Assembly: GCA_036785375.1 (NCBI GenBank)
Contig: JAWMAR010001868.1
Location: forward strand, 62,001-126,000
Direction of reading: 5' to 3'
DNA from: Leucoraja ocellata
Taxonomy: Eukaryota
DNA: 64,000 nucleotides
The notes beneath the pieces were generated by a model that saw only the letters and a program-made list of their open reading frames with translations, did not search any database and had not been told where the DNA came from. The position numbers and the translations under genes were made by a program. Positions 8,823-59,710 of the stretch are shown piece after piece (position 1 is the stretch's first letter; every line of letters begins with the position of its first letter).

Positions 8823-8868
8823 ATGATGTCGGCGGTTTCACTGAGTTTGTTCCTGGCGTTAATAGTCC
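8823..8868 (+). CDS. IgH leader exon (MMSAVSLSLFLALIV, phase 1)
   Basis: ATG 8823, hydrophobic signal peptide, donor C|GTGAGT at 8869, short intron to the V exon. Confidence 0.92.
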
Positions 8869-9041: not shown

Positions 9042-9397
9042 GTGTCCATTCCGATATCGTTCTAACCCAGCCCAAGACAGAGACGGCCACTCCTGGAGGC
9101 TCCATCACACTGAACTGTAAAATCAGCGGGTTCAGTGTTGGCAGCAAGTGGATGGCTATGGTCCGTCAGGTCCCCGGGCAGGGGCTGGAGTGGCTGCTTC
9201 ACTACCTCTCTCCTGGTAGAGAGTACTTCGCTCCGGGGATAAAGAGCCGATTTACTCCGTCCAACGACAATACGAATAATATCTTCACCGTGACGGCCAG
9301 GAGCCTGAAGGTCGAAGACACGGCTGTCTATTACTGTGCGAGAGGCCAGCAGGGATTGGCTACTGGGGAGGAGGCACCATGTTGACGGTAACCAACG
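9042..9397 (+). CDS. Joined VH-D-JH exon (V 9042-9343; D/N 9344-9355; J 9356-9397), J shifted out of frame
   Basis: Acceptor ttgcag|GT. V translates to [98 protein letters not shown] reads [13 protein letters not shown] (WGxG motif) in another frame, followed by donor G|GTAAGA at 9398. No CACAGTG heptamer follows V. Confidence 0.95.
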
Positions 9398-13558: not shown

Positions 13559-13855
13559 CAGCTCCATCCGCGCCCAGTCCCTTCATTCTCTTCACCTGCG
13601 AGGATCAAGGCTCCAGTGGTTCGTTCACCTATGGTTGTTTGGCGTTGGGCTATTCCCCTGCGGGCGCCAGTGTTTCTTGGAAGAAAGATGATATAAAACT
13701 GGAGACCGGAGTGAAGGGCTACCCGGCAGTGTTCAATAAGTTGGGAACTTACACCCGGAGCAGCGAGTTAACCATCACCGAGGCGGCGGCAGCGGGAGGT
13801 GACATCTTCTGCGTGGTTCAGCACAACCAGAACGAGTATAAAGTGAAAGTACCAG
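13559..13855 (+). CDS. IGHM: IgM CH1 exon
   Basis: ttgcag| (A)APSAPSPFILFTCEDQGSSGSFTYGCLALGYSPAGASVSW...DIFCVVQHNQNEYKVKVP |GTTCGT; 297 nt; C1-set C/W/C pattern plus an N-terminal Cys at the position expected for the light-chain bond. Confidence 0.93.
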
Positions 13856-15214: not shown

Positions 15215-15532
15215 TCCGCGTGGTACATCATCCTACCGTCACCATTACCATAACTGCTCTTGATGAAATTAAGCGCAGCAGAAAGGCGATCGCCGTGTGT
15301 TTGGTCAACGATTTCACCCCAGCCAAATTTACTGTGAACTGGCTGAAGAATGGAAAGCCATTGGATTCTGGCATCGTCACCTCTCCCGCCTTCCAGGTGA
15401 ACGGTACCGGTAACTTCTCGGCGACCAGCCAGTTGACATTCACAGCTGAAGAGTGGTTCGGAGATTTCGTCTATACCTGCCAAGTCAACCATGAAAAAGA
15501 TTTGAAAAGCCAAAACATCAGTATGTCTTCAG
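15215..15532 (+). CDS. IGHM: IgM CH2 exon
   Basis: tttcag| VRVVHHPTV...AVCLVNDFTPAKFTVNWLKNG...YTCQVNHEKDLKSQNISMSS |GTAAGA; 318 nt. Confidence 0.95.
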
Positions 15533-15982: not shown

Positions 15983-16285
15983 ATGATGATTCCTGCGACA
16001 AACTGATTATTAAAATCCTTCCACCACAAGTTGAACAAGAGTTAATGGAGATGACCGTGACGTTAACCTGTCTGGTATCCGATGCACCTTATGGTATCAC
16101 AGTATCTTGGAAACGTGGGAATGTACATTTGGTATCATACATCCAGCCCACAGGACATGCAGATATCGTACAGAGCAAAGTCAACATTTCGACTCAAGAC
16201 TGGCTGAGTGGGGATTATTTCGAATGCGTGGTGAGCCATGGTAATATGCCAAAGCCAAAAACTGAACGAATCAACTGGAAGAAAG
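15983..16285 (+). CDS. IGHM: IgM CH3 exon
   Basis: ccacag| DDDSCDKLIIKILPP...LTCLVSDAPYGITVSW...DWLSGDYFECVVSH...INWKK |GTGAGC; 303 nt. Confidence 0.95.
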
Positions 16286-17397: not shown

Positions 17398-17789
17398 GTC
17401 AACATCTGCTGCCACCTTCCCTCTCAGTCCTTCTGCCGCCGACAGAAGAAATCTCCGCGCACAAGACTATCACCCTCACCTGCTTCGTGAGAGGATTCTC
17501 CCCTCGCAGGGTCTTCGTCACGTGGACACTTGATGACAAGCGGGTGGATGAGAGCAAGTACAAGAACACCGAGGTGGAGGCGGAGAACGGCAATGATACC
17601 TTCTTCACATACAGCCTGTTATCCGTTGGGGCAGAGGAGTGGGCTAGCGGAGCCTCCTTCTCCTGTCTAGTGGGGCACGAAGCACTCCCCATGAAGACCA
17701 TCGTCAGAACGGTCAATAAGTCCAGCGGTAAACCCAGTTTTGTCAACGTTTCCCTTGTATTAATGGACACTGTCAATTGCTGTCAATGA
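17398..17789 (+). CDS. IGHM: IgM CH4 exon plus secretory tailpiece
   Basis: ccctag| [15 protein letters not shown]...[17 protein letters not shown]...[11 protein letters not shown]...[22 protein letters not shown]. Internal donor G|GTAAAC at 17728 serves the membrane form; the tail has an NVS glycosylation site and a penultimate Cys. Confidence 0.96.
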
Positions 17790-17816: not shown

Positions 17817-17832
17817 AATAAATGCTAATAAA
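17817..17832 (+). terminator. Polyadenylation signals of secreted IgM mRNA
   Basis: AATAAA at 17817-17822 and 17827-17832, shortly after the stop codon. Confidence 0.75.
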
Positions 17833-18069: not shown

Positions 18070-18517
18070 NNNNNNNNNNNNNNNNNNNNNNNNNNNNNNN
18101 NNNNNNNNNNNNNNNNNNNNNNNNNNNNNNNNNNNNNNNNNNNNNNNNNNNNNNNNNNNNNNNNNNNNNNNNNNNNNNNNNNNNNNNNNNNNNNNNNNNN
18201 NNNNNNNNNNNNNNNNNNNNNNNNNNNNNNNNNNNNNNNNNNNNNNNNNNNNNNNNNNNNNNNNNNNNNNNNNNNNNNNNNNNNNNNNNNNNNNNNNNNN
18301 NNNNNNNNNNNNNNNNNNNNNNNNNNNNNNNNNNNNNNNNNNNNNNNNNNNNNNNNNNNNNNNNNNNNNNNNNNNNNNNNNNNNNNNNNNNNNNNNNNNN
18401 NNNNNNNNNNNNNNNNNNNNNNNNNNNNNNNNNNNNNNNNNNNNNNNNNNNNNNNNNNNNNNNNNNNNNNNNNNNNNNNNNNNNNNNNNNNNNNNNNNNN
18501 NNNNNNNNNNNNNNNNN
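18070..18517. other. Assembly gap (N run)
   Basis: 448 Ns. Confidence 1.
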
Positions 18518-19727: not shown

Positions 19728-20027
19728 NNNNNNNNNNNNNNNNNNNNNNNNNNNNNNNNNNNNNNNNNNNNNNNNNNNNNNNNNNNNNNNNNNNNNNNNN
19801 NNNNNNNNNNNNNNNNNNNNNNNNNNNNNNNNNNNNNNNNNNNNNNNNNNNNNNNNNNNNNNNNNNNNNNNNNNNNNNNNNNNNNNNNNNNNNNNNNNNN
19901 NNNNNNNNNNNNNNNNNNNNNNNNNNNNNNNNNNNNNNNNNNNNNNNNNNNNNNNNNNNNNNNNNNNNNNNNNNNNNNNNNNNNNNNNNNNNNNNNNNNN
20001 NNNNNNNNNNNNNNNNNNNNNNNNNNN
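19728..20027. other. Assembly gap (N run)
   Basis: 300 Ns. Confidence 1.
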
Positions 20028-20721: not shown

Positions 20722-20849
20722 ATTACGCCGACAACGTTCCTCTAGAGGACTATGAGGAAGACAGAGACAATATCTGGACAACCGCTTCCACATTCATTAT
20801 CTTGTTCTTCCTGAGCATTTCCTACGGTGCTGCCGTAACTCTGGTGAAG
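20722..20849 (+). CDS. IGHM: IgM TM1 exon
   Basis: gcgtag| DYADNVPLEDYEEDRDNIWTTASTFIILFFLSISYGAAVTLVK |GTGAGT; acidic spacer plus conserved antigen-receptor transmembrane motif; phase matches the donor at 17728. Confidence 0.95.
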
Positions 20850-20983: not shown

Positions 20984-20992
20984 GTCAAGTGA
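20984..20992 (+). CDS. IGHM: IgM TM2 exon (VK-stop, giving the KVK cytoplasmic tail)
   Basis: Polypyrimidine tract + tacag| GTC AAG TGA; AATAAA at 21157-21162. Confidence 0.92.
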   Translation, partial: VK

Positions 20993-42500: not shown

Positions 42501-43820
42501 CACCTTGCTACCTATTGCTTCTACCCTCATTTTACACCCCTCGGCCTCTACGCTCACACATTTAAGAAACCCTTTCCCTTTAACTCCATCCTCCACTATC
42601 CCATTCGACACCCCACCCCCCTTATTCAGTTTAAAGCCACCCGTGTAGCAGTGGCAAACCTGCCTGCCAGAATGCTGGTCCCACACCTGTTAAGATGCAA
42701 TCCGTCCCAATTTGTACAGTTCCCCCTTACCCCAAAACAGATCCCAGTGATCTAAGAATCTAAAGCCCTGCCCCATGCACCAGTTCCTCAGCCACACGTT
42801 CAGGTCCCGTATCTCCCTGTTCCTGCTCTCGCCAGCACGGGAAACTGGAAGCAAACCGGAGATAACAACCCTGGAGGTCCTGCTTTTCAACATTTTTCCG
42901 AGCTCTCTAAAGTCACGCTGCAGAATATTCATCCCCTTCTTTCCGACATCGTTTGTGCCGACATGCACTACCACCTCCGGATGTTCACCTTCGCCCTTGA
43001 GGATTTTCTGCACTCTGTCCGTGACATCCTGGATCCTGGCACCGGGAAGGCAGCACACCATCCTCGCATCCCGTCTGTTGCCGCAGAAACCCCTGTCCGT
43101 ACCTCTCACGATGGAGTCTCCCACTACAATGGCCTTGCCTGCCTTAGGCCTTTTTGGTTTTGGCTCAACAGCCCTATTCGCATCGCAAGCCAGTCCGCCG
43201 CTCACGTCTTCTGTCCCAACAGCTTCTAAGCGGGTGAACCTGTTTACAAGAGGTACACCACCCGGGGACGTTGGCATTCCATGCTTCCCTCCCTTTCTCA
43301 CTGTCTCCCACCTTCTCTCTTCCAGTACCTTAGGTGTAACAATCGTACTGTAGGACTTGTCGAGGAACAACTCCGTTTCTCGTACGAAACGGAGGTCATC
43401 CACTTGCTTCTCCAGTTCCCCAACACGGCCCTTCAGGAGCTCCACCTGGATGCACTTTCCACATTTGTAGCAGCCAGAGGCACCAGCGGTGTCCTTGACC
43501 TCCCACATACTGCAAGCATCGCACTGAATCAGCCTTCTTTCGTCTCTCCCTCGCCAGTGTTTTGCGTAGCCTCCTCTCCTCAGCCTCCTCGCTGAAGACT
43601 CTCGAGCCAAAGACTCACACTTTTCTCACAGGGCAGTTCCCTCACTGCCGCTCGCTAAGAGCCGTCTTGCTTAAATTGACTGATAAATTGCCTGATTTAC
43701 CAATTTGCAAAGCAAATTCCTCAGTTTTCAACTGTTTTACCACACTGACTCACTTCTCTCCTCCCACTTGGGCTAGAGCCAATCAGTCGTATCTCTTGCT
43801 AATCTGCTGCTGCTGTTCCT
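39503..43820 (-). mobile_element. Near full-length CR1 LINE (ORF1 zinc finger + SGNH esterase; ORF2 APE + RT)
   Basis: ORF1 42690..43610 has CDAC...CGKC, GDSIVRG and HVGTND, with a late frameshift. ORF2 39717..42686 has LNARS, ETWL, GDFN, SDHN and FADD, ending at a premature stop (QRVVNL*). (TTTCTATG)n tail. Confidence 0.95.
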
Positions 43821-48084: not shown

Positions 48085-49394
48085 CAAAGATCTTATAGCG
48101 AAGCAAGATAGGCTACTCCTGCTAAATGCAATGGACTGACGTGTAGTACGCTATGGAGGGGATCATGGGCATTTTTCCACGCCCATTTTAGCAACCTGAG
48201 CCTACCTAACCCGACCCGACTCGCACTGTAATCAATGTTGCGGGGCAACAGTTTGTGTGGGTCAGATTCATAAATCTGTCAGTTCAAACTTCTTGTCAAG
48301 AATAAAATTTGATTCTGGTAATTGTCTTTTTTAATGTTTTTTAAATCATTTCTTTTTTAATGGCTCACAAGCAGTGTTTGAGTTGATTTTGTAGTAACCG
48401 GAACCGACCCGACTCGCAGGGTGATTGACAGGGGGGGACTTTTTGTGCGTGATTATAGGGTTAGATTCATAATTCTGTTAGTTCATAATTCTGTTGATTC
48501 TTGTTAAAGAATAAAATGTTTATAAACACACATACATGAAAATTATATAAATGTATATAACACACACAATTATATTTCTTCTAATCCAATAATGAACTTT
48601 ATTTCAGACTAGACAAGGGACATTAAATAAGAAACATTGTCTTGGGGCACTCTCTCTCCCCGCTGCCCCGGGCCCCGCACTCTCTCTCCCCGCTGCCCCG
48701 GGCCCCGCACTCTCTCTCCCCGCTGCCCCGGACCCCGCGCTCTCTCTCCCCGCTGCCCCGGGCCCCGCACTCCTTCTCCCCTCTGCCCCGCACTCTCTCT
48801 CCCCGCTGCCCCGGACCCCGCACTCTCTCTCCCCGCTGCCCCGGGCCCCGCACTCTCTCTCCCCGCTGCCCCGGACCCCGCGCTCTCTCTCCCCGCTGCC
48901 CCGGGCCCCGCACTCCTTCTCCCCGCTGCCCCGCACTCTCTCTCCCCGCTGCCCCGGACCCCGCACTCTCTCTCCCCGCTGCCCCGGACCCCACACTCTC
49001 TCTCCCCTCTGCCCCGCACTCCTTCTCCCCGCTGCCCCGCACTCTCTCTCCCCGCTGCCCCGCACTCTCTCTCCCCGCTGCCCCGGGCCCGCACTCCTTC
49101 TCCCCACTGCCCCGCACTCTCTCTCCCCGCTGCCCCGGGCCCCGCACTCCTTCTCCCTGCTGCCCTGCACTCTCTCTCCCCGCTGCCCCGGGCCCCGCAC
49201 TCCTTCTCCCCGCTGCGGATCCAATCTTTGGCCAGAAGCAAGAAGGCGGGAGCAAGAAAGCGGAACAAGATGGCGGAACAAGATGGCGGAGTCAGGTTGC
49301 TAAAATGTGTCCTATAATCACCCATGAATCCGCCCATGAGCGTACCTCACGTTTGCGTGAGAGTAATCCATCTTGCTTCATTATAAGATCTTTG
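48085..49394. mobile_element. Non-autonomous DNA transposon with CA...TG ends and 8-bp TSD (hAT- or P-type), carrying a GC-rich minisatellite
   Basis: TIRs CAAAGATCTTATAgcGAAGCAAGAT / ATCTTGCTTCatTATAAGATCTTTG; TSD GTATAAAC at 48077-48084 and 49395-49402; removing it restores the CR1 sequence. Confidence 0.88.
48645..49215. repeat. GC-rich minisatellite, ~23/30-bp unit (GCACTCTCTCTCCCCGCTGCCCCGGGCCCC)
   Basis: Direct inspection; explains the repetitive ORFs in several frames. Confidence 0.95.
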
Positions 49395-55357: not shown

Positions 55358-58300
55358 AACTTTATTCCTTTTCCTTTCCCTCCACACTCTAGAAGTTTCT
55401 TTACTGATATTTCTGTCAATCCAATTTTCCTCATTTCAATGATCATAAATCCTCTTTCTGTCTCATATCTCCTACATGCAACTAGGGCATGCTGAACTGT
55501 TTCTGGCTGTTGGCATTCCTCACACAGCCCAGTAGGGTGTTTTCCCAATATTTTTAATGTGCTGTTCAGGTGAATGTGTCCTATCCTCCATCTTGTTAAT
55601 ACTACCTGTTCCCTCCTGTTCCCCCCTCTTCTTGCTGCAATGCCCACTCTGTTTTGTATCGAATAGAGGTGTCTCCCCTTTGTCTCCTGTTCCCAGTATT
55701 GTTGCCATTCCTGATTTATTTTCTTCCACACAATGTGTTTTCCTTCAGATTTGGATAGTTGTAAGTTTACCTCTATGTTTCTTTTTTTTTTTAAAGCCTC
55801 CTTTGCTAATTTATCCACCTTTTCATTCTCTAGAACACCAATGTGTGCTGGGACCCACAACAAAGTCACGTCACTGCCCCTCCTTGTCACTTGGCTTAAT
55901 AGTAGCAGGATTTCATAAACTAAGTCAGGCCGCCTATGGGATGCACCAGACCCAATACTCTGGATTGCAGATAATGAGTCGCTACATATTAATACTTTAC
56001 ATGGTTGCATCAGTTCCATCCACCGAACTGCCATCAAAATAGCGTACAGTTCCACTGTATATACTGTCAAATAGTTATTTGTTCTTTTGTAAAGCTCAAC
56101 ATTCATCCCCTGGACTACCACCGCCGCCCCTGTTGTTTCAGCTACTGGGTCCTTTGATCCATCTGTGAAAATTAAGAGGTGTTCCCTGTATCTATTATCT
56201 ATATGGTTATGATATTCTGTCTTTAGGTCTGAATTTTTGTTCCTCCTTTTTGCCTCCCATATCTCCAGATCAACTTTTGGGATGTTCAGTAACCATATTG
56301 GCACAGATGGCCACAATACTGCAGGGCAGAACTCTTTGTCCTCTACTCCCATGTCCCTTGCCACAACTCCTCCAACCCAGCCGAAGCTTCCAGACTGAGC
56401 CACCCCTCTCTCCCAGGAAACGGAAATCTTTTACTCTTTCCAAATTGTTGCCGTATACTTTTAACTGGACATCCTCTTTAATTTTTTTCCTTGTGAAAAC
56501 CATTGTCTTTGTCTTCTCTATAGAGAAGTTAAAACCCCATTTCCCTCCCCACTCTTCCACCTGGGCTATCCCTTGCTGTACTTTTTCCATGATAAAATCT
56601 ATATTCCTCCCCCTTCTCCATAGGCTGCCATCATCTGCAAAGAGCGATCGCCCCATCTCTGGTTGAATGTTTGCAAATATATCATTGATCATGATTGAGA
56701 ATAGGATCGGGCTTATCGCACTTTCCTGGGGAGTTCCATTCTCGACTACACATTTACTAGAGATGTCTGACCCTATTTTAACTTGGATACTTCTACCGTT
56801 GAGAAAATCCATTATCCAGTTAAAAATATTTCCTCCTATTCCCATTAAATGCAGCTTTATTAGAAGACCTTCTCTCCACAACATATCGTAAGCCTTCTCT
56901 ACATCAAAAAATATGGTAACTACAGATTCTTTTTTGACTTGTGCTTTCCTTATCTCATCTTCCAAGCACAGAACTGGATCATTAGTACCTCTCCCTTTTC
57001 TAAAGCCACTCTGATAATTAGCCACTATACCTTTTTCTTCCATTAGATGCATTAATCTTTCATTTACCATTCTTTCCATCAGTTTACACATGTGTGCTGT
57101 TAAAGCTATAGGTCTATAATTTACTGGATTACTTGCATCTTTCCCTGGTTTTCTAATAGGCGCAATGATTGCTTCCTTCCACCTCTCCGGTATTCGCCCT
57201 TCCTCCCACACCTTGTTATATAGTGCAAGTATCTTTTGGAGTCCCTCCTCACTTAGATGCTTTATCATTATGTAACAAATATCATCCTTCCCTGGGGCTG
57301 AGTTCTTATACTTGGCCAGAGCTCTCTTTAGCTCCCCCAAATTAAATGGAATATTGTACTTGTCCTCTGTGATACCTTTCCTTTGTAAGGCCTCAACATT
57401 TTCCTCTCTTGTTCTTTCCCTACCTCTTCTTCCTTCATCTGATAAGTTGTGGGAGCTGTGAACCCTACTATAAAGTGTTAACCATTAGTTCTGCTTTGTC
57501 TTTATTTGAGATTACAGTTTGATCTCCATTTGTTAGGATAGGATAACTCCACTCCCTTTTATCACCTTCCATTTTTTTAAATCATCCCCCATATCTCCCC
57601 TACCTATGTTGTGCTTCCAATTGAATCACAATACTTCCTCCAATATGCTCTTTTTGTTTGTCTTATAGTCCTCCTTACAATTGCCTGAGCCTGTTTGTAA
57701 TTAATCATGTGTTGGTAGATATGAGTTATTTTTAATAATCTGAATGCTCTGTATCTATTCACCACCACCACTTTACACTTATTGTCCCACCACGGCACAG
57801 CTTTCCTTTTTGATCTTCCTTTACTTTTAGGTATGGAAACTAATGCTGTTCTTTTGATACCTTCTGACAATTTATTCTCAAAGCTTTCTATATCTGTCTC
57901 TTCTTGTATCGGTTTTACATATCTAACACATTCCTCCTTAAATTTCTCCCAATTATCCTTTCCAAAAACCCATCGTCCACTTCTGTTTTCTTTACTCATA
58001 ATTAAAGTAACATTTATTTTGCATAGCACATGACGATGATCACTTCCTATGGTACCCTTTTCATATACTTCCCAGTCACATTTAGCAGCAATCCTATTAG
58101 AAACAAGCGTAAGGTCCAACACAGACTCCTTCCCTGTCCTAACATCTACCCTGGTCTTCTTTCCATCATTTAGACATACTAGATTACCATCATTTAATAA
58201 TTCCTCAATTACCAGCCCATTATTATCTGACTTTCCACTGCCCCATAATGTATTATGTGCGTTAAAGTCCCCACACCAAATAACATTAGATTTGCTCTGG

Positions 58301-59710
58301 CCTTCTACTTCCTGTAACTTACTGACCTCTAATCGTTTACATGGATTATAGTAATTTATTACCACTATTTTCCTCCTCTCAGACCATACTTCTATTACAA
58401 CATATTCCTGTTCCTGCCCAATTCCTAATACCCTGTATGGTATCCCTTTTTTAATGAAAGTGGCGCAACCCCCTCCTCCCCCATTTCCCCTATCACATCT
58501 CACTGCAACATAATCATATAGAACAAAATCTAAACTTGGTTTCAAACAGGTTTCCTGGATACATACGACATCTGGTTTTTCCTTCCTACTGTCTATGCAT
58601 TGCTTAAAGTCTTGCCCATTGGCTAACAAGCTTTGTGCATTCCATTGTAGGATTAACATTAATATTATTAACCCACACATGTTGACTCTTGGCTCGCCTG
58701 GATACTGAGACCATCATGTATTTCCTCCCACTTCAATCCTGCCATGCCCAAGTGGTGGACTGCAGCCTTTACTATGATTTGGATCCTTTCTGTTTTAGAT
58801 TTTACTTCTGCTGTCACATTTATCACTCCTGCTATAAATATAACCAGGTTTTTATTTTCTTTCCATATACTCTTTTCTTTTTCTTTTATTGTCTCCATTA
58901 TGCCCACATCTTGCTCCCTCCTGATCCTTCTTTCATTCATCTGTTTTGTAGGGCCAGCCCTCTTTGCTGCCTCTGCATAGGAGACCTTTTTCTTCACTCT
59001 TATGTTTTGTACTTCAGCTTCTCGTTTTATCACCTCACAGCCCCAGTGAGCCACACTATGCTCTCCTCCACAATTACAGCACTTTGGTCTGACCCCCTCT
59101 CCACACTGACCATATTCATGGTCCCCACTACACCTTGCGCATTTCCTCGCCCCCTTGCACATTTTAGCTATATGCCCAAATTTCTGACATTTGAAGCACC
59201 TTATTGGTTAGGGTACGTACTCTCTTACGCTATATCGCATGAATCCAAAATAGACCACTTTTGGAAGGGATTCTGTCTTGAATTCGACCAGGACTGACTC
59301 AGTTTCCTCTTTCTTTGCTCCTTTGGTCATTCTTTTGGCATTCATAATTAATTCACATCTCTTCCTGAGTTCCTGAACCAGTTCACTCATATTAACTATG
59401 AAAGGGATTCCATAGATAACCCCTTTACACCCTGCCGTCCTCCGTTCTCCCACTCTCACCACTTTTATTATTTTGGTTTTGTCAATCTTGTTCATTTTCA
59501 TTGCCTTTTCAACTTGAGCCTCACTGTTGCACCCTATTAGCATGTTTCCATCCTCCAGCACTCTTGCATACTTTACTTCCCCAACCTGGGCCCTGACTAT
59601 TTTTGTCAGCTTCAATGGATCTATCTTCTTTACTCCTCCTTCAAACCTCACAACTACATTTAACAAAATTTCCTTTTCTGGTTCCTTGTCTTCACTCTCC
59701 GATCCACCAG
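55358..59710 (-). mobile_element. I-group (Nimb-like) LINE: ORF1 with CCHC knuckles; ORF2 APE + RT + RNase H
   Basis: ORF1 59208..59726 and 58668..59162 (CARCSGDH, CCNCGGEH); endonuclease 57604..58680 (LQWNA, CIQET, GDFNAH, SDH); RT 56270..57340 (DVEKAYD, LFADD); RNase H in 55285..56403 (IFTDGSK, ELYAI, CSDSLSA, WVPAHIG..NEKVD). Confidence 0.92.

Follow-up and report, generated by a model that had tools for sequence, protein, structure and literature searches.

A probable young pseudogene formed by germline V-D1-D2-J joining in an IgM cluster of a cartilaginous fish

In the horn shark and the little skate, IgM heavy chains are encoded by V-D1-D2-J-Cμ clusters, of which some are split, some partly and some fully joined within one genome, to judge from the available portions of the reports (PMC2193153, PMC4279169, PMC5192425), and the forms described there include VDD-J, VDJ and VD-DJ (PMC2193153). 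Clearnose skate IgH genes include germline-joined VDJ (PMC2435157, available text). Such joins arise by RAG-like recombination, and in the accessible part of the study of Lee et al. four of six joined NS4 light-chain genes were in frame, and no expression was detected for the joined H genes of the horn shark (PMC2193156). In the same text, one CDR3 base of the nurse shark NS4 gene R19 had to be omitted for in-frame reading, so that an out-of-frame germline join is already known, from a light-chain gene. A polymorphism between joined and unjoined states was sought in nurse shark light chains and not found, according to the available sections of PMC2193153. The germline-joined gene IgM1gj, inter-cluster switching and tandem mutation are covered in PMC4279169 and PMC5192425, again as far as the accessible text goes.

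The window, by which we mean the whole stretch of 64,000 nucleotides analysed here, contains a cluster of this kind. The genome that it comes from shows the same mix as the horn shark and the little skate, but here 20 of 40 clusters are joined and only one of the 40, that in the window, is fully joined, and that one out of frame. Its likeness to R19 (NS4, kappa; Lee et al. 2000, PMC2193156) lies in a germline join that leaves CDR3 one base out of frame; R19, however, is a light-chain gene that, in the available text, also has stop codons, while no further disabling lesion is seen in the window gene. According to the same source NS4 joins bear little trace of TdT, whereas two bases of the window junction are untemplated. 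The nurse shark gene IgM1gj likewise has a VDJ fully joined in the germline on a mu-type gene, but it is described, in the portions at hand, as a neonatal protein without Cμ2, and the window gene has four C domains, with CH2 present and open, behind an out-of-frame junction. A close split sister permits the junction to be parsed base by base here, which Lee et al. called difficult for H chains (PMC2193156, available text). Our preferred reading, to which we give a probability of roughly 0.85, is that the window cluster is a recent non-productive germline VDJ join and likely a pseudogene.

Architecture of the window cluster

All features of the cluster lie on the forward strand. The leader exon (8823..8868; MMSAVSLSLFLALIV) ends in a phase-1 donor and is identical or nearly identical to the leaders of group-1 paralogues. 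The VH segment (9042..9344) is trimmed by 1 nt at its 3' end, its recombination signal (RSS) being gone, and is followed by an 11-nt junction core (9345..9355) that consists of GC, a D1 remnant and a D2 remnant and is net one base short of frame. The JH segment (9356..9397) has lost 6 nt from its 5' end, contains the V-frame stop and ends in the strong donor ACG/GTAAGA. The constant region comprises the open exons CH1 (13559..13855), CH2 (15215..15532), CH3 (15983..16285) and CH4 with the secretory tail (17398..17789), two AATAAA signals for the secreted form, read from the sequence (17817..17832), an open TM1 exon (20722..20849) whose protein is the same as in most paralogues, and a TM2 exon (20984..20992) that reads GTC AAG TGA. 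As read from the sequence, AG/GT splice sites flank CH1 to CH3, and the donors of the leader and TM1 are also normal. Two stretches of N, at 18070-18517 and 19728-20027, both fall in the intron between CH4 and TM1 and touch no exon.

The four C domains, the short secretory tail with a penultimate Cys and the TM1/TM2 exons are those of an IgM cluster, and the best PDB matches of CH4 are mostly Cμ (E about 1e-47). The layout, with one V, two D, one J and Cμ exons per cluster and with many clusters, is that of cartilaginous-fish IgM, and this V-D-D-J-Cμ organisation marks the host as a cartilaginous fish; the appearance of its V and tail suggests a skate. A homologue search with the V protein among longer proteins gave seven distant non-chondrichthyan matches, none of them informative.

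The initial annotation had put 29 nt between the Cys and Trp codons of the junction and the end of the V frame at TGA 9383, and both are seen in the assembly: Cys TGT lies at 9335-9337, Trp TGG at 9364-9366, and the V frame runs from 9053 through the Cys to the stop at 9383-9385. The V-J exon (9042-9397) thus has 356 nt, one less than a phase-1 to phase-1 exon needs, and with this spacing the gene as assembled lacks the in-frame VDJ of a functional antibody of the IgM1gj type. Leader, V, J, CH1 to CH4 with the secretory tail, and TM1 are each free of stops in their own frame, and the claim that leader, V framework, C exons, tail, TM1/2, splice sites and polyadenylation signals contain neither stops nor frameshifts was borne out. 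The description of the rest of the gene as pristine holds in that sense but not for its amino acids, given a private NCCQ tail and six private V bases. It had further been proposed that one added T would give an ordinary J start, GGA TTT GGC. This does not agree with the germline J of split paralogues, which reads ..TAT CTT G(G/A)C TAC TGG; the residue at that place is Leu (CTT), where the added T would give Phe, and the TT at 9356-9357 is templated by J.

The stop sits 12 nt upstream of the J donor and far upstream of the later exon junctions, from which mRNA decay is predicted. Over the 400 nt that precede the V exon, the window cluster departs from all paralogues at one base only, which makes transcription in B cells plausible; the promoter could therefore still drive a transcript that would be lost to nonsense-mediated decay or would yield just a truncated V peptide. 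Rescue by splicing was considered and rejected, because the two GT sites that precede the stop in frame with CH1 (9336 and 9381) are both poor donors beside the strong J donor. As no RSS is left, the window cluster cannot rearrange again.

Join states of the paralogues and anatomy of the junction

Of 64 candidate V regions in the same genome, 40 were scored in the search, and the downstream structure was read for all 40, the split state of 6 of the last 10 being called from an intact V signal and the V-J distance. Twenty clusters are split, with signals in the order V-23 / 12-D1-22 / 12-D2-12 / J; 4 are joined V-D1, 13 V-D1-D2 and 1 VD-DJ, 1 has a split V with D joined to J, and the window cluster is the only V-D1-D2-J cluster, next to 19 that are partly joined. 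A pattern running from the Cys to WGGG gave one exact match genome-wide, the window cluster itself. The 20 joined clusters have about 13 distinct junctions, of which some recur, in three copies (L004-6), four copies (L012/13/16/18) and two copies (L019/20). Half of the clusters being joined, and several junctions being present in two to four copies, germline joining is common in this genome.

Several of these clusters are of interest in their own right. L019 and L020 (VDD-J) have one V-D1 junction in common with L022 (VD-D-J), which suggests stepwise germline joining. The single VDD junction carried in four copies by L012, L013, L016 and L018 (G000:C388) includes a long GC-rich untemplated stretch that looks like the product of germ-line TdT activity. 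At D1 of L023 there is a two-base palindromic addition; such additions are the hairpin signature of RAG joining. In L086 (G000:C1356:249500-250600) the V is split and the 5' signal of D1 abuts a trimmed J, a D-to-J join without D coding bases. L087 (G000:C353:2381500-2382500) is the VD-DJ cluster, and a loose end in public run X4 agrees with its V-D1 junction at all 30 bases; the presence of this join in another sample indicates that such joins are inherited.

The sister of the window cluster is a split cluster on contig C878, colinear with it in pieces over about 140 kb and carrying the same J allele. The two differ by about 2% substitutions and by large indels, in contrast to the near-identical pair L004/L005, which has 3-4 private substitutions in 8.3 kb; we therefore read the C878 cluster as a paralogue and rejected the possibility that the two are alleles.

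The window junction was parsed against the germline segments of seven split paralogues. V matches at 10 of 11 germline bases up to 9344, and J matches the germline from 9356. Between them, GC at 9345-9346 is untemplated, presumably an N addition. The D1 remnant at 9347-9354 matches the G-type D1 at 7 of 8 bases and the T-type D1, that of the sister cluster, at 5 of 6, and it is overlapped by a D2 remnant, GGA(T), that starts at 9353 and whose T may equally be the first base of J. The window cluster has lost every recombination signal, along with about 1.1 kb of spacer. The structural hallmarks of a germline-joined IgH gene are present: signals and intervening DNA excised, ends trimmed, D remnants retained and two bases untemplated. 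In its trimming, its two untemplated bases and its D1/D2 remnants the junction looks like the product of RAG joining, and its origin in the germline is probable.

This leads to a simple scheme. RAG would have cleaved three signal pairs in the germ cell of an ancestor, and trimming of the ends, joining at short homologies and the addition of two bases would have completed the V-D1-D2-J fusion. The join would have been unselected for frame, two thirds of random joins being out of frame, and then inherited; it would be later than the split from the C878 sister, which is about 2% diverged and still split, and the resulting pseudogene would be too young for decay. As a dead copy the window gene matters little. 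The join adds to the signs that V(D)J joins made in the germline of cartilaginous fish are unfiltered for frame at birth, and the family is a usable natural record, in which close split relatives let trimming and P and N additions be read.

Age, decay and constraint

The private intron substitution rate of the window cluster is 0.38% (27 in 7,080 nt). Given 1,806 coding nucleotides, and given that 3.9% of changes create stops, a gene dead for its whole private branch would be free of other lesions with a chance of 0.19-0.41, and one dead since it parted from the sister (0.9% per lineage) with a chance of 0.02-0.12. Intact exons are therefore plausible for a short death and unlikely for one that dates from the sister split, and the join is probably recent. 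The intact C exons are unremarkable and are what is expected of a young pseudogene.

The C exons have two private changes against five expected from the intron rates (P = 0.125), a weak and non-significant sign that most of the branch was under constraint. One is silent and the other replaces Ser by Cys in the tail, the private bases being at 13560 and 17779. The second, a C>G change, makes the tail NCCQ where 19 of 20 paralogues have NSCQ (the twentieth, L011, is frameshifted there in the assembly), and it puts a second Cys beside the penultimate tail Cys used for polymer formation. The initial annotation had proposed a dN/dS comparison of the C exons with paralogues. This was carried out on 15 loci, with L007 and L011 dropped for frameshifts and four group-2 loci and L014 left out. 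The mean is 0.89 at the window cluster and 0.71-1.18 in the 14 others, and since all 15 loci, split ones included, fall between 0.7 and 1.2, the comparison does not tell live from dead clusters.

In V, six bases are absent from the other 17 group-1 paralogues, and all are in codons whose amino acid is changed. At 9158-9160, the start of FR2, the window has Met where 29 of 29 paralogues have Leu; we take this to be the place at which most V domains carry Trp. The split sister L002 carries five private V changes, an excess that matches that of the window V, which was therefore rejected as evidence of hypermutation; the private V changes look like ordinary germline V diversification that preceded the join.

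Alternative readings of the frameshift

Of the three explanations offered in the initial annotation, a recent non-productive germline join fits best, a homopolymer error is disfavoured, and a role of the C exons as donors found no positive evidence. An error of the assembly would mean that the real junction is one base longer and in frame and that the germline gene encodes an invariant IgM heavy chain, resembling IgM1gj but with all four C domains; should reads bear this out, the gene would be a new invariant IgM with four domains. Every other exon is open, in-frame germline joins are enriched in the literature (4/6; PMC2193156, available text), and the germline segments could supply the template for one more base at any of three sites, namely a T before 9353 (from D1/D2), a G within the GGG run or a T at 9356. 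An extra base anywhere in 9345-9357 would restore the frame, so that the proposed count of TT against TTT in reads is too narrow, and as the TT is copied from germline J, a missing T there is not specially indicated, which speaks against the homopolymer form. Error-ridden copies do exist in the family: over 8.4 kb aligned with 16 paralogues, L011 has 34 private 1-bp indels, against 4 in each of L007 and L009 and 0-2 in the others, and L011 (also L071; G000:C546), with frameshifts in CH1, CH3 and CH4, is probably an unpolished stretch of assembly whose pseudogene look is untrustworthy, L007 being a smaller case in CH2. Over the same 8.4 kb, however, the window has one private 1-bp indel, in an A run, with one more in 7.9 kb upstream (where 4 or more of 5 paralogues give coverage) and one in 7.5 kb downstream (6 or more of 10), in total three, one of them a deletion, in about 23.9 kb, true mutations included. 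Paralogue reads did not repair the errors of L011, so the clean state of the window locus probably reflects a sound local consensus. About 0.0015 indels are expected over the 12 unanchored junction positions, with a 95% upper bound of about 0.005-0.008 (0.008 from the 8.4-kb region alone), and this low local rate makes an assembly error at the junction unlikely. With a prior of two thirds in frame (4/6, Lee et al., PMC2193156, available text), arithmetic puts the error probability at about 2%; we raised the figure to 6%, because the junction is unique and has neither a paralogue check nor read confirmation. The genome-wide Cys-to-WGGG pattern found no in-frame copy of the joined cluster, and on balance an assembly error is improbable. 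It is harder still to credit a join that was at first in frame and functional and then lost one base by germline mutation. Joining of D1 to D2 through a common TGG, as the T-type D1 of the sister would allow, gives an in-frame product one T longer than that seen, and the D1 remnant carries one or more substitutions, which suggests a join of some age; but the G-type D1 explains the junction without any loss, through a GG common with D2, and private 1-bp deletions number about 1 per 24 kb on this branch.

The least credible reading is that the assembly took up a somatic rearrangement of a lymphocyte, out of frame and perhaps hypermutated. IgH joins that are partial or out of frame do occur in shark B and T cells (PMC2435157, accessible part), the six private V bases include an adjacent pair at 9200-9201, tandem changes being described as typical of shark hypermutation, and the join is single-copy and unseen among the contig pieces listed from three DNA runs, where depth is zero beyond 9482. 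Against this, two V motifs private to the window each have a single match, so that the assembly holds no unjoined twin of the cluster; the locus is of consensus-grade accuracy, unlike a single long read; the private V load of the split sister is similar; and the private Met codon is also found on a contig of single-copy depth from another sample. Only slightly less remote, we judge, is the reading that V is dead but the cluster is kept, its C exons being used by the VDJ of other clusters through AID-linked switching, or its V serving as a conversion donor. Exchange of V and C between clusters is reported in the nurse shark (PMC4279169, available text), and the promoter region, the J-C intron and the C exons are intact, with the deficit of private C-exon changes noted above. 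That deficit, however, is not significant, one of the pair replaces a tail residue that is invariant in the rest of the family, the dN/dS value is not separable from the rest, and at least 14 other group-1 clusters have open C exons about 98% identical, hence little would be gained.

Public reads, and other features of the window

Four public runs, X1 and X7 (one sample), X4 and X24, were examined of 24 listed. None of the 24 holds half of the sampled window words, of which paralogues alone would give up to 0.61. In the four runs there is no junction-spanning contig among the 24 of 141 pieces listed and no insertion is listed near 9356, depth being zero beyond 9482 even in multi-copy intron. 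The RNA run has 0 reads on any paralogue and is hence uninformative on expression. A contig of X1/X7 carries the private Met codon at a single-copy depth of 10-16, which indicates that the Met change is heritable.

The same contig gives a hint that the join may still be segregating, with some animals unjoined and others carrying the out-of-frame VDJ, since the V of X1/X7 that has this codon is at single-copy depth and no contig there crosses the junction among the pieces listed. This is unlikely, though somewhat less so than an assembly error, given that X1/X7 also lack the FR3 bases of the cluster and may come from a sister species, that holes between contigs prove nothing and that the assembly has no unjoined allele. 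If true, it would be direct evidence for a continuing action of RAG, with TdT-like additions, in germ cells regardless of frame, and a polymorphic join would make such ongoing activity directly testable.

Elsewhere in the window, two long stop-free stretches on the minus strand, at 42693-43625 and 57607-58713, have motifs that we take to be those of a LINE ORF1 (esterase-like) and a LINE endonuclease, respectively. A GC-rich tandem repeat at 48607-49346 gives long repetitive open frames, also on the minus strand.
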